The notes under the pieces: model-generated
What the model was told of the DNA's origin: nothing
The model's input: only the letters and a program-made list of their open reading frames with translations
Databases searched by the model: none
Virus record (IMG/VR): IMGVR_UViG_3300010167_000010
Span: 96,001-160,000 of that record
DNA length: 64,000 bases
Origin: a virus
Lineage: Duplodnaviria; Caudoviricetes
Direction: 5' to 3' (one strand)
Part shown: positions 23,238 through 57,198 of the stretch, in pieces
Position numbering within the stretch: position 1 is the first letter of the stretch
Layout of the letters: every line of letters starts with the position of its first letter
Program-made: the position numbers and the translations under genes

Positions 23238-23371
23238 TGGTATTTGTAGTAATATTATTTAAGATGTCGATGTTAGCATTAGGTTGCGCATTAGCAATTT
23301 GGCTTACTTTGAGACTTATAAATTCTATAAGGAGTTTATAATATAAATTTATAGTTAATTTACTAATTATA

Positions 23372-23548
23372 AGGTAGTAATACCTCTTGGCACTGATTGA
23401 GAATTTGCTCTAGCCCGGGTATCCTGAAAGGATTGCTAATGGAGCTTATGAAGAACAGGTAGTTGAGTAAAAACTTACTGTGAGGGTAATCACCTATATC
23501 CTCGAGAAAAGATTAGGTGTTCGGCGGCTTTAAAAATTACTGCTGCCC
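23372..23548 (+). ncRNA. structured RNA of unknown family, immediately upstream of tRNA-Pro
   Basis: GC-enriched non-coding stretch: GNRA hairpin, GAAA hairpin, H-type pseudoknot, terminal hairpin. Confidence 0.6.
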
Positions 23549-23550
23549 AA

Positions 23551-54013: not shown

Positions 54014-55192
54014 GTGATAAGTTTTACAATTAAAACAGATCAATTAAGTAGAATTAAAATTTTACAAGACTACATTAAAAAAATGGAAACATTTTCTTCT
54101 TTAGATAAAAAGCAAGTTTTTGTATTAGAGAATGATAAACTTACTATTTTTGGAAAAGCAGATAGTGCCGGAGCTGGTCATATTGAAGCAACATTTGATA
54201 TTTCTAATTTAAATAAAAGTGAATCTTTTGGTTTTGAACTAGATAAGTTTATAAATTATTTAGAAAAATGTAAATCTGATGAAATAAATATCAGTATTGC
54301 AAATAATAAAATTACATTTAAAACCAAAACAAATAAATTGATAATAAATGAAGCTTTAGTATTTACAGCATTAGATCCACAAGTTTTAACTGAATTAAAA
54401 GATAATATTAAAAATAAATTGGCTCTCCCAGAATTCAAGAAACCAATTGAAATTAAATTAGATCATAGAGATTTAATTACTGAATTAGGCACTATGACCA
54501 AGCTTCAAGATACAAATCATCAAATACTTTTAGGTAAAGATTTTATTAAATCAGCTGATACTTTATGTATATTAAGTTTAAAATCTTCTTTAACTATTGT
54601 GCAAACAGATGAAGAAGTATTTATAGATAGAGATATAACTTCTATATTTAAGAATACAGATTCTTTTAAAATATCTTCTGATAAAAAATATTTTTATTTT
54701 GATATTCAGAATTATGGTATTAAATTGATATTTGTACCAAAAACATTTAATTGGTCATTTCCAACAGATCAAGATATTATTGATATTAGTCCAGAAGCTA
54801 AAAAGCTAATAACTTTAAAAATAAATACAGAAAGATTTTATGAAGAACTTTCTAAGTTTGAAGGGGTTTTTGAAACTGGAACTTGGAGATATGGTCAAAT
54901 AAAAATTAGAACACCTAAAGGTTTTAAAGATGAATTAGAATTATCTTTTGATAATAGTATAACAGAAGTATTTACTACGTTACCAATTACTATAACATCT
55001 AATACAGATAAAACAGATAATTTTGAATTTATGATCCCAACTATTCATTTTAAATCATTAAAATCTATTTTATCTAGTGAAGATACTTTTACATTTAAGT
55101 ATTCATCTTCAAAATTAAGTGACCCAAATGGTGTTGCAATAATTATAGAAAATACTAATGCTAATATTATTTTAGCCAAAATGGAGGAATAA
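54014..55192 (+). CDS. putative DNA sliding clamp (beta-clamp-like)
   Basis: 392 aa, three-fold beta-rich organisation; MISFTI.. start and ..IILAKM end resemble DnaN; GGAGG RBS, GTG start. Confidence 0.5.
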   Translation: MISFTIKTDQLSRIKILQDYIKKMETFSSLDKKQVFVLENDKLTIFGKADSAGAGHIEATFDISNLNKSESFGFELDKFINYLEKCKSDEINISIANNKITFKTKTNKLIINEALVFTALDPQVLTELKDNIKNKLALPEFKKPIEIKLDHRDLITELGTMTKLQDTNHQILLGKDFIKSADTLCILSLKSSLTIVQTDEEVFIDRDITSIFKNTDSFKISSDKKYFYFDIQNYGIKLIFVPKTFNWSFPTDQDIIDISPEAKKLITLKINTERFYEELSKFEGVFETGTWRYGQIKIRTPKGFKDELELSFDNSITEVFTTLPITITSNTDKTDNFEFMIPTIHFKSLKSILSSEDTFTFKYSSSKLSDPNGVAIIIENTNANIILAKMEE

Positions 55193-55193
55193 C

Positions 55194-55568
55194 TTGAAAA
55201 TTAGAAATGGTTTCGTTAGTAACAGTTCATCAAGTTCATTTATTATAATTGGATTAAGAGTACAAGATATTGAAGAATCTTTAATTAAATATGCTAAAGA
55301 GTTTTGTTCTGCCGCATTTTATAATGAAAAATTAAGTATGTTTGAATTAGCTGAACACCTTGGTGTAGATTATGATTGCGACGGTGATGATAATGATGGT
55401 GTTATTGGTAGAACAATTGCATATGTAGATTATGAAGATTGTTGTATAGAAAGAGAAATGATATCTGTAAAAAATATTGTTGAAGAACCAAAATTAAAAA
55501 CTTTATTTGATATTACTGGTAAAACTAAAGATGATTTAGTAATATTATCTGGTAATGGTGAAGCATGA
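55194..55568 (+). CDS. MKIRxGFVSNSSSSSF-leader family protein 5
   Basis: TTG start after GGAGG. Confidence 0.85.
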   Translation: MKIRNGFVSNSSSSSFIIIGLRVQDIEESLIKYAKEFCSAAFYNEKLSMFELAEHLGVDYDCDGDDNDGVIGRTIAYVDYEDCCIEREMISVKNIVEEPKLKTLFDITGKTKDDLVILSGNGEA

Positions 55569-55727
55569 ACAAAAAATTAATTATAGAAAGATTAAAATCT
55601 TTAAAAGTAATAGCTGATAATTTTTTAGATGAACAAGATTTTGATGAATATACAGATAGGGAAATTTATACTCAAGTAATTGAAATATATGAAGATGGTA
55701 TAAACAATTTAATAGAGGATATTGATA

Positions 55728-56015
55728 ATGAAGATTAGAATTAGTTTTGTTAGTAATAGTTCTTCTGCATCTTTTATAATAGATAAAAGAACTATATCAC
55801 AAGATCAATTAATTTTAATATTAAATCATAAAGATAGTGGTTTAGAATATGCTAATACTGATGCTTGGGAATTAGAAGATGGATTAAATTATTTAAAAGG
55901 TTCTACAATTATAGATAATTTTGATATGCGAAGATTTCTAAAAAGTATTGGGATTAAAAAGGTTCACGAGTGGGAATCAGATAATGATGATTGGGAAGGA
56001 TGGGATTTAAAATGA
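55728..56015 (+). CDS. MKIRxGFVSNSSSSSF-leader family protein 6 (variant MKIRISFVSNSSSASF)
   Basis: Leader motif; start placed at ATG 55728. Confidence 0.8.
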   Translation: MKIRISFVSNSSSASFIIDKRTISQDQLILILNHKDSGLEYANTDAWELEDGLNYLKGSTIIDNFDMRRFLKSIGIKKVHEWESDNDDWEGWDLK

Positions 56016-56416
56016 AAATAAGAAATGGGTTTGTAAGTAATAGTTCTAGCAGTTCTTTTGTTATTGCCTTTAACGGTGATAGAATAGGATTAGAGAAAAA
56101 AATAAAAGATGTATTTGGAATGAAGTTTAAACATCCAATAAAATTCCCAGATTTATCTGGATCTATAATAAATTGTATTAGTGAAGAATATTCTGATATA
56201 GATGGAATAAAAGAATTTATGGATTATTTTGACATGGAAGATGAAAAAGATGGTCCAGATGAACATGTACAAGCAATAAAGTATCTTAAAAAAGGTTGGA
56301 TAATTTGTACTGGAGAATTTTCAGATCAAGATGATCCAGAAGAAGCACTTTTATGTAATTCAGAAATAGAATATAAAGATAAAGATTTATATATCTCTTC
56401 TCCAGAAGGCTACTAA
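56012..56416 (+). CDS. MKIRxGFVSNSSSSSF-leader family protein 7
   Basis: Leader motif; start placed at ATG 56012. Confidence 0.85.
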   Translation: MKIRNGFVSNSSSSSFVIAFNGDRIGLEKKIKDVFGMKFKHPIKFPDLSGSIINCISEEYSDIDGIKEFMDYFDMEDEKDGPDEHVQAIKYLKKGWIICTGEFSDQDDPEEALLCNSEIEYKDKDLYISSPEGY

Positions 56417-56430
56417 GTTAATATATAAAT

Positions 56431-56596
56431 ATAACCGAGGTGAACGGTTATAAATTATATTCATCGGTTCCTTAAAAAGGAACGGCGGTAGGAATATCCA
56501 AAACTGCCGCCAACTTTTTCTTTTTGCTACAAAAGAAGTAAACCTAAAATGTAGCTTACCTCCAATCCGACTCTCCCTTCGGGGAGAGTATTTTTT
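56431..56596 (+). ncRNA. structured small RNA of unknown family
   Basis: Own promoter motif, pseudoknot, three hairpins, UUCG terminator. Confidence 0.65.
56570..56596 (+). terminator. intrinsic terminator
   Basis: ACTCTCCC-TTCG-GGGAGAGT-ATTTTTT. Confidence 0.9.
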
Positions 56597-56617
56597 ACTA
56601 AATATTAAGAAGGATAT

Positions 56618-56983
56618 ATGAAAAAGATATTTTTAATTTTATTAGTTTTATTTATAAGTTCTACAATATATGCACAATCAGCAAATTATCAACAATTGGC
56701 ACAAGACGCTGCAAGAAACTTATCAAGAAATGAACAAGAGTATAATAGATTATTAGCATTATTAAATGAATCACAAAATAATTCTCGTTTTATAAGTTTT
56801 CAAACTAGATTAAATGGTTTACAAAGACAGATTGAAGCACAAGAAAAAATAGTTGAAGACTTAATAAATAGACCAGCTGTTATAGTAAATATAAGAAATG
56901 CATTAGATGAGTTAGTTAGACTTAATGACAGATATAAATCAGTAGAAGCCCAATATCGTGAATGGCTTAATTCTTTAAGATGA
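56618..56983 (+). CDS. secreted coiled-coil protein
   Basis: Sec signal ending IYA-Q; helical body. Confidence 0.7.
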   Translation: MKKIFLILLVLFISSTIYAQSANYQQLAQDAARNLSRNEQEYNRLLALLNESQNNSRFISFQTRLNGLQRQIEAQEKIVEDLINRPAVIVNIRNALDELVRLNDRYKSVEAQYREWLNSLR

Positions 56984-57198
56984 TAATAAAACAAATAGCA
57001 TATTCAGTAGCAAAATGTTTTGAGTGCAATTCATTTATAATTTATAAACCAGGTTCAGACGGTTTTCCAAATGTTTGCGAAAAATGCGGTGTTAGATATG
57101 ATGTACATTTAACTCAAGAACAAAGAATGCAAATGGAAAGAATGAAACAACATCCCGGACATCATACAACTATGAATGTTCATACAATTAAGTTTTAG
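56980..57198 (+). CDS. small zinc-ribbon protein
   Basis: CFEC...CEKC. Confidence 0.6.
   Translation: MIIKQIAYSVAKCFECNSFIIYKPGSDGFPNVCEKCGVRYDVHLTQEQRMQMERMKQHPGHHTTMNVHTIKF

Follow-up and report, generated by a model that had tools for sequence, protein, structure and literature searches.

Short phage RNAs that run from a promoter to a terminator include lambda OOP and P22 sar, each of which is antisense to a gene beside it, and the T4 stable RNAs C and D, for which no function is known. In the T4 gene 32 mRNA, a pseudoknot at the 5′ end is an autoregulatory operator; from there, an unstructured operator rich in A and U extends as far as the SSB gene's ribosome-binding site. The put RNA of phage HK022 is a cis-acting antiterminator made of two stem-loops, with no pseudoknot, that suppresses termination. 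Type III antitoxin RNAs (ToxI-like) are pseudoknotted and occur as tandem repeats with a terminator and an endoribonuclease gene, a layout that sets the RNA-to-protein ratio.

The locus described here lies in a window of 64,000 nt, which spans bases 96001-160000 of a virus record. The full record is 329,018 bp long, has direct terminal repeats and contains ~28% G+C. We give roughly even odds (about 0.5) that positions 56431 to ~56525 of this window specify a new, independently transcribed structured phage small RNA that acts on its own. Like OOP, sar and T4 RNAs C and D, it would be a small non-coding phage transcript with its own promoter and intrinsic terminator; unlike OOP and sar, it has no gene opposite and no complementary target in the phage genome, and its sequence is related to none of these RNAs. 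The gene 32 leader is comparable in that a large lytic phage has, among its replication genes, a transcript that begins with an H-type pseudoknot, but here two hairpins and a terminator come next and the downstream gene is not constant. Like put, it is a compact multi-helix RNA right after a phage promoter and upstream of terminators, whereas its conserved unit contains a terminator and has no sequence similarity to put. As in ToxI systems, a terminator and a gene for a small protein come after a pseudoknotted RNA; however, there is a single unit per genome with no tandem repeats, and the downstream protein is a 66-73 aa Zn-ribbon protein rather than an endoribonuclease and is not always adjacent. 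None of the neighbouring proteins matched a toxin family. H-type riboswitch aptamers (preQ1-I and SAM-II/SAM-V type) resemble it in being promoter-proximal, in the loop-to-downstream pairing, in the 1-nt L1 and A-rich L3, and in the downstream terminator. Against this likeness stand different conserved bases, the lack of a covariance-model match, an extra hairpin between the aptamer-like part and the terminator, no evident antiterminator, and a downstream gene that is variable and often has its own promoter.

Searching the whole window against Rfam 15, we found only two tRNAs above the gathering threshold, neither of them in the target region, and a search of 56300-56700 with E up to 10 gave four chance-level matches (12-16 bits against thresholds of 40-70). 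Membership of each family tested fails because a defining feature is missing. The RNA motif is new, though its general kind is known, and up to now it has been seen in a single clade of uncultivated jumbo phages.

The host of the phage is probably a spirochaete, likely gut-dwelling, because the flagellin gene of the phage shares 63-68% identity with FlaB from Spirochaetota, among them Treponema and termite-gut MAGs. The target gap at 56417-56617 (201 nt) holds a phage promoter motif, three hairpins, a pseudoknot and two predicted intrinsic terminators. Upstream of it is ORF 55991..56416, one of several paralogues sharing a MKIRNGFVSNSSSSSF-type N-terminus. Three paralogues stand in tandem at 55194-56416, each starting with a near-invariant MKIRNGFVSNSSSSSF; this motif is common to proteins of dozens of other large phage contigs, and the sole PHROG match of the paralogues was PHROG 7397, of unknown function. 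A clamp-like 392-aa protein with a weak PHROG match to polymerase processivity factor is encoded at 54014-55192, 1.2 kb upstream of the RNA; it has no Pfam match, is 49-59% identical across the clade and is the best synteny anchor for the RNA. Downstream of the gap, ORF 56618..56983 encodes a 121-aa protein with a signal peptide and is followed by a 72-aa CxxC...CxxC Zn-ribbon ORF, thyX and a family A DNA polymerase gene (polA). Within the replication module, the position of the RNA is fixed in the relatives that carry it, after the clamp-like gene and before thyX-polA.

The promoter region (56416..56431, + strand) comprises AGTTAAT at 56416-56422, which shares bases with the stop codon that ends ORF 55991..56416, together with a TATAAATA box at 56424-56431; the predicted +1 of the RNA, at 56431-56434, coincides with the base of hairpin 1. 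Across the whole genome, AGTTAAT stands 8, 9 or 10 nt ahead of an ATG in 16, 11 and 7 cases, respectively (34 of 141 copies), versus 1-3 cases at other spacings, and ACTAAWTA is followed by N2-ATG in 40 of 109 copies. Because the ATG spacing is so sharply fixed, both motifs seem to behave as −10-like elements that set +1 on the start codon. A large share of the phage mRNAs therefore appears to be leaderless, as the spacing of the two promoter-like motifs implies. Examples of the fixed-spacing motifs in the window are found at 57197, 58983 and 61914. Beyond the RNA, a late-type promoter motif, ACTAAATA, is placed at 56597-56604 (+ strand) by motif position and genome-wide spacing statistics, and the next transcription unit starts at 56597..56620 (+ strand), with the Shine-Dalgarno (SD) sequence AAGGA at 56610-56614 and the ATG of the 121-aa signal-peptide gene at 56618. 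The order in the window is promoter, RNA, two terminators (T1 and T2) and next promoter.

Every element that the original prediction listed for 56416-56596 was found in place on the + strand. Hairpin 1 (S1, 56430..56452) forms in the minimum free energy (MFE) fold by pairing of 56430-56437 with 56445-56452, giving 8 bp and the loop AGGUGAA. The pseudoknot helix S2 (56439..56465) joins GGUGAA (56439-56444) to UUCAUC (56460-56465); L1 is 1 nt (A56438) and L3 is A-rich and 7 nt long (56453-56459), an H-type geometry. The invariant G56466 separates S2 from hairpin 2 (56467..56483), which has a pyrimidine-rich 5′ strand and a purine-rich 3′ strand of GGA/GGAG type and passes into hairpin 3 with zero linker. 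Hairpin 3, or terminator T1 (56484..56525), consists of a stem-loop at 56484-56511 (GC-rich 8-bp stem, A-rich 12-nt loop, −13.8 kcal/mol), AAC and a U-tract at 56515-56525. A lineage-specific tail (56526..56568) contains a weak hairpin 4 (56526-56555) and UUACCUCC (56556-56563), and is followed by T2 (56569..56596), identified in a terminator scan as a UUCG hairpin at 56569-56590 (−14.7 kcal/mol) with U6 running to 56596. With a GC-rich stem and then a U-tract, hairpin 3 and T2 both have the form of an intrinsic terminator. The + strand folds to an MFE of −55.7 kcal/mol (z = −5.3; 0 of 200 shuffles fold equally well), and the − strand fold is weaker (z = −3.7).

The GGCGG...CUGCYGCC hairpin has exactly two copies in the 329 kb, at 23523 and 56484. 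The former belongs to a second AGTTAAT-driven non-coding stretch of ~180 nt at 23353-23550 of the window, which abuts the 5′ end of a tRNA-Pro (23551), has no Rfam match and has a fold z-score of only −2. Its 3′ hairpin, GGCGGC...GCUGCC-CAA, is the sole other copy of the hairpin-3-type motif, and the layout of this RNA recalls the T4 stable RNAs that are co-transcribed with tRNAs.

When the locus was compared by blastn with 50,697 phage records, nothing matched. L003, a 261-kb IMG/VR contig reached via a neighbouring protein, keeps the three hairpins with different stem sequences. A covariance model (R1) based solely on the copy in the window was applied to loci retrieved via the Zn-ribbon and clamp-like proteins, where it detected the element in six more distinct sequences (L003, L171, L173, L181, L182 and L191) after identical copies were merged (L173 with L174 and L177; L181 with L189 and L190; L182 with L183; L191 with L192). 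A second model (R2), built from the seven sequences, scored all of them at 62-91 bits, with a single copy per genome. All counts refer to these seven distinct sequences, which come from one phage clade. The clamp-like gene was a useful anchor; IMG/VR searches with the 121-aa and Zn-ribbon proteins yielded little. The exact-loop pattern CGGCG-N-AATATCCAAAA hit more than 118 IMG/VR stretches, all by chance except L003, and a longer pattern hit 13, including one true relative that was already among the known ones. A pattern match in the high-GC L282 was rejected as chance, being antisense inside an ORF and having no terminator. Covariance-model searches of 156 genomes (5 + 151) of the likely host order, in which only some candidates were scored, gave no copy. 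Two close relatives, L188 and L186, lack the element at this position. A syntenic weak model match at L194:2698-2782 (16.7 bits), with a clamp-like protein 33% identical, may be a distant relative; with AGAUGCAA as the loop and GGCACC as the linker, it would have A.C in place of the invariant G.U pair, and the terminator 5′ strand falls within the hairpin-2 loop.

Covariation supported all three hairpins. Pairs were counted in an alignment fitted to the model, which flatters the pairing figures: standard pairs made up 95.8% of pair cells (100% in hairpins 2 and 3), and compensatory changes occurred in 19 of 27 pairs overall (6 of 8 in hairpin 1, 5 of 6 in hairpin 2 and 7 of 8 in hairpin 3). 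None of 500 shuffles matched the observed values, and sliding the partners by 1-3 columns left 31-54% paired. A MAFFT alignment (A8), which misaligns hairpins 2 and 3, was left out of the counting. RNAalifold recovered the same three hairpins, and single-sequence MFE folds contained hairpins 2 and 3 in all seven sequences and hairpin 1 in five.

The proposal in the original prediction that the hairpin-1 loop pairs with downstream sequence was supported. In 7/7 sequences the loop reads A-GGUG-NN and the linker, 7-11 nt past the stem, reads NN-CAUC-GG. The four GGUG/CAUC pairs, one of them G.U, are invariant, and the two outer pairs vary with covariation: pair 5 is C-G in four sequences, A-U in two and a mismatch in one, and pair 6 is A-U, U-G or C-G in five of the seven. 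The covarying loop-linker pairing, the L1 of 1-3 nt and the A-rich L3 of 7-11 nt are those of an H-type pseudoknot. Because G.U pairs occur, including the invariant one, the + strand can be fixed as the putative functional strand. The invariant bases (G-A-GGUG, CAUC-G-G, A-C-G and C-A) gather where S2, hairpin 2 and hairpin 3 meet, and this clustering at a junction with 1- and 0-nt linkers suggests one compact fold. An alternative fold pairing CCGA with UCGG is present in some sequences (seen in L171); it was rejected as a switch, since it leaves the terminator intact and hence has no switch logic.

Judged by what is shared among the seven sequences, the conserved unit comprises only 56431 to ~56520-56525 (~90 nt), that is, the H-type pseudoknot, hairpin 2, and hairpin 3 with its U-tract. 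A GC-rich stem of 8-10 bp with a U-tract within 1-3 nt makes hairpin 3 a predicted intrinsic terminator in 7/7; its loop, 12-15 nt, is unusually large for a terminator. The features that follow it in the window, namely hairpin 4, ACCUCC and the UUCG terminator, are found in 0/6 relatives. Positions 56540-56590 resemble the region upstream of the RNA in L173, L182 and L003, and in L003 a hairpin and U-tract near-identical to T2 sit upstream of the RNA promoter. Since similar hairpins lie upstream of the RNA in relatives, the second half of the window RNA is a rearranged flanking module outside the family core. An extra 5′ hairpin stands right before hairpin 1 at L173:2595-2640, L182:5760-5804 and L171:1475-1517; its stem, GACUCUCUA/UAGAGAG, is like the T2 stem in the window, its 16-18 nt loop has the conserved sequence UAGUYYGUCAAA..GCG, and no U-tract follows.

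The gene downstream of the RNA varies, being a Zn-ribbon gene, a glycosyltransferase gene, thyX or the 121-aa gene. The Zn-ribbon gene of L003, L173 and L182 has its ATG 13-14 nt past hairpin 3 and no SD sequence. This AUG has no promoter motif either (L003:3759-3772, L173:2733-2746, L182:5900-5912), and AUUAUG is conserved there. In L191 the Zn-ribbon gene downstream of the RNA is SD-led. A new GTTAAT promoter and a leaderless ATG follow hairpin 3 in L181/L189 (thyX) and L171 (glycosyltransferase). Directly before hairpin 1, motifs equivalent to the window promoter were present in L003, L191 and L181.

How the RNA is coupled to the next gene bears on whether it acts in cis. As a leader or attenuator, its pseudoknot and hairpin 2 would sense a metabolite or protein and set the stopping of RNA polymerase at hairpin 3, controlling the downstream Zn-ribbon, thyX and DNA polymerase A genes much as a riboswitch or protein-dependent attenuator does. 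This reading is tentative, at about half the weight of an independent RNA, but it stays serious because Zn-ribbon expression needs read-through of hairpin 3 in four genomes (L003, L173, L182 and L191), where the gene starts 13-20 nt past the terminator with no recognisable promoter motif of its own. The order of promoter, H-type pseudoknot with A-rich L3, intrinsic terminator and genes is moreover the canonical layout of a transcriptional riboswitch, the element is always 5′ of the thyX-polA block, and a requirement to pair in two ways could explain why CCGA and UCGG are invariant. However, a new promoter precedes the next gene in three of the seven (with a second terminator as well in the window) and the fold is still fully conserved, the immediate downstream gene changes, no riboswitch family matched even at E up to 10, and no antiterminator that pairs with the 5′ strand of hairpin 3 was found to be conserved, the sole alternative fold sparing that hairpin. 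Neither the constant gene class nor the mutually exclusive terminator and antiterminator folds of a transcriptional riboswitch were seen. It is improbable that the element is a structural boundary only, a terminator plus stabilising 3′/5′ structure that divides the clamp operon from the unit after it: a terminator needs no upstream pseudoknot with an invariant 4-bp helix, no invariant junction and no fixed linkers of 0-1 nt, T2, like other terminators here, is just a tetraloop hairpin, and L188 and L186 manage without the element at this position. What speaks for a boundary is that the element lies at a transcription-unit boundary in every genome and that hairpin 3 is a predicted terminator in 7/7; that 5′-terminal hairpins and 3′ terminator hairpins stabilise transcripts is established knowledge.

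Two further readings concern ribosomes. The original prediction had an unpaired ACCUCC in a 165-nt small RNA masking GGAGGU ribosome-binding sites and favouring the phage's leaderless mRNAs. ACCUCC is indeed present at 56558-56563, as one of only two + strand copies in the window, it is unpaired in the centroid fold, and the leaderless promoters are real. But it lies 3′ of T1, and would be carried by read-through transcripts only; 6/6 relatives have no CCUCC within 300 nt of the RNA; the segment resembles DNA found upstream of the RNA in relatives; and in the MFE fold of 56431-56596 ACCUCC is paired to the hairpin-1 loop (GAGGUGA with UUACCUC) over 7 bp, at −9.8 kcal/mol versus −5.7 for the pseudoknot helix. 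The mature RNA thus contains no conserved, accessible CCUCC-type seed. An ACCUCC that proved unconserved or paired had been named beforehand as grounds for giving up the idea; the motif is unconserved and complementary to the RNA's own loop, which leaves masking by ACCUCC unsupported and, by our estimate, the least probable of the readings. Nothing supports a lineage-specific role of the 165-nt read-through form. The conserved feature has the opposite polarity, an SD-like GAGGUG within the pseudoknot. Presented by the hairpin, it could be a decoy for the 16S rRNA 3′ tail or the 30S platform that favours leaderless mRNAs, and we rate as quite improbable, a little below the boundary reading, that the RNA docks on the 30S subunit as an SD mimic, through the 16S 3′ tail or by a preformed GGUG:CAUC helix in the SD-helix cleft, and reprogrammes translation. 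AGGUG is invariant and GAGGUG occurs in 5/7 sequences, two promoter classes place +1 on the ATG, and pairing of the loop with a consensus 16S 3′ end, which may not be that of the host, was computed at −11.8 kcal/mol, against −5.7 for the internal pseudoknot. On the other hand, GGUG is itself paired within the conserved pseudoknot, many phage genes are SD-led, including the neighbour at 56618, so that a decoy would harm the phage too, the AGAUG of L194, possibly a distant relative, does not look like an SD sequence, and a decoy would be needed in amounts comparable to ribosome numbers. Were the mimic real, SD-dependent initiation would be titrated in favour of leaderless phage mRNAs; alternatively, ribosomes would be recruited to the SD-less AUG 13-14 nt past hairpin 3 in three relatives.

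Our order of preference is an independent folded RNA, then an attenuator, a boundary element, an SD mimic and finally an anti-SD RNA. The independent folded RNA is favoured because it is uncoupled from the next gene in three of the seven sequences and the fold is nevertheless fully conserved; the uncoupling is read from the new promoter that follows it in L171 and L181, and from T2 and ACTAAATA in the window. In L003 a terminator ahead of the RNA promoter insulates the RNA as its own unit. As we picture it, a middle/late-type promoter of its own would drive the RNA, with the 5′ end at the base of hairpin 1. The hairpin-1 loop would pair with the following linker (invariant A-GGUG with CAUC-G) in a classical H-type pseudoknot, the next two hairpins, on 1- and 0-nt linkers, would complete one compact fold, and the last hairpin and U-tract would act as an intrinsic terminator that frees the RNA. 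In the window, T2 and the new late promoter behind the RNA would make it a stand-alone transcript, and a minor 165-nt read-through form may bear the ACCUCC tail. We infer that the folded RNA acts in trans, with a protein or the ribosome bound via the invariant pseudoknot and junction; we do not think that it acts by antisense pairing through ACCUCC. Of the stand-alone small RNA first proposed, a structured, non-coding RNA with a promoter at one end and terminators at the other was supported; the anti-SD mechanism, whose ACCUCC lies outside the conserved unit, was not.

Two observations count against a strictly stand-alone RNA. In the four of seven sequences whose Zn-ribbon gene has no promoter of its own, the element would also be a 5′ leader that has to be read through, and L189 and L191 lack a terminator between the upstream clamp-like gene and the RNA, which could therefore arise there as a 3′ UTR as well. 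The best reading is of an independent RNA that, in some relatives, may double as leader and attenuator for the Zn-ribbon, thyX and polA genes.

Several other candidate modes of action were considered. No conserved ORF was found in the RNA, GUG-initiated frames differing in frame and length among the relatives; a small ORF starting at the loop GUG occurs both in the window and in L003, yet its frame relative to the conserved bases is not the same in the two, and in L173 and L191 it ends 4-5 codons in. A search of the 329-kb phage genome with five segments of the RNA gave no antisense target with ≤2 mismatches at a plausible position. The Zn-ribbon protein was rejected as an obligate partner: its gene is absent from the 40-kb G005 fragment that carries the RNA, and present in L186 and L188 without the RNA. 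A structure model of this protein had a pLDDT of 66 and only generic Zn-ribbon matches (E > 0.1). A CsrA sponge was rejected for want of GGA in the loops, and Pistol or another self-cleaving ribozyme because the topology differs and there is no Rfam match.

Giant phages have many unexplained non-coding RNAs, few of them with covariation support. The RNA described here is compact, easily synthesised and probed, and present once per genome at a fixed point in the replication module. Even if it were only a boundary element, it would still define the transcription units, the two promoter classes and the terminator style of a spirochaete-associated group of uncultivated phages. Because the phage appears to make many leaderless mRNAs, an invariant SD-like sequence locked in a pseudoknot would provide a concrete handle on whether such phages manipulate translation initiation or termination.
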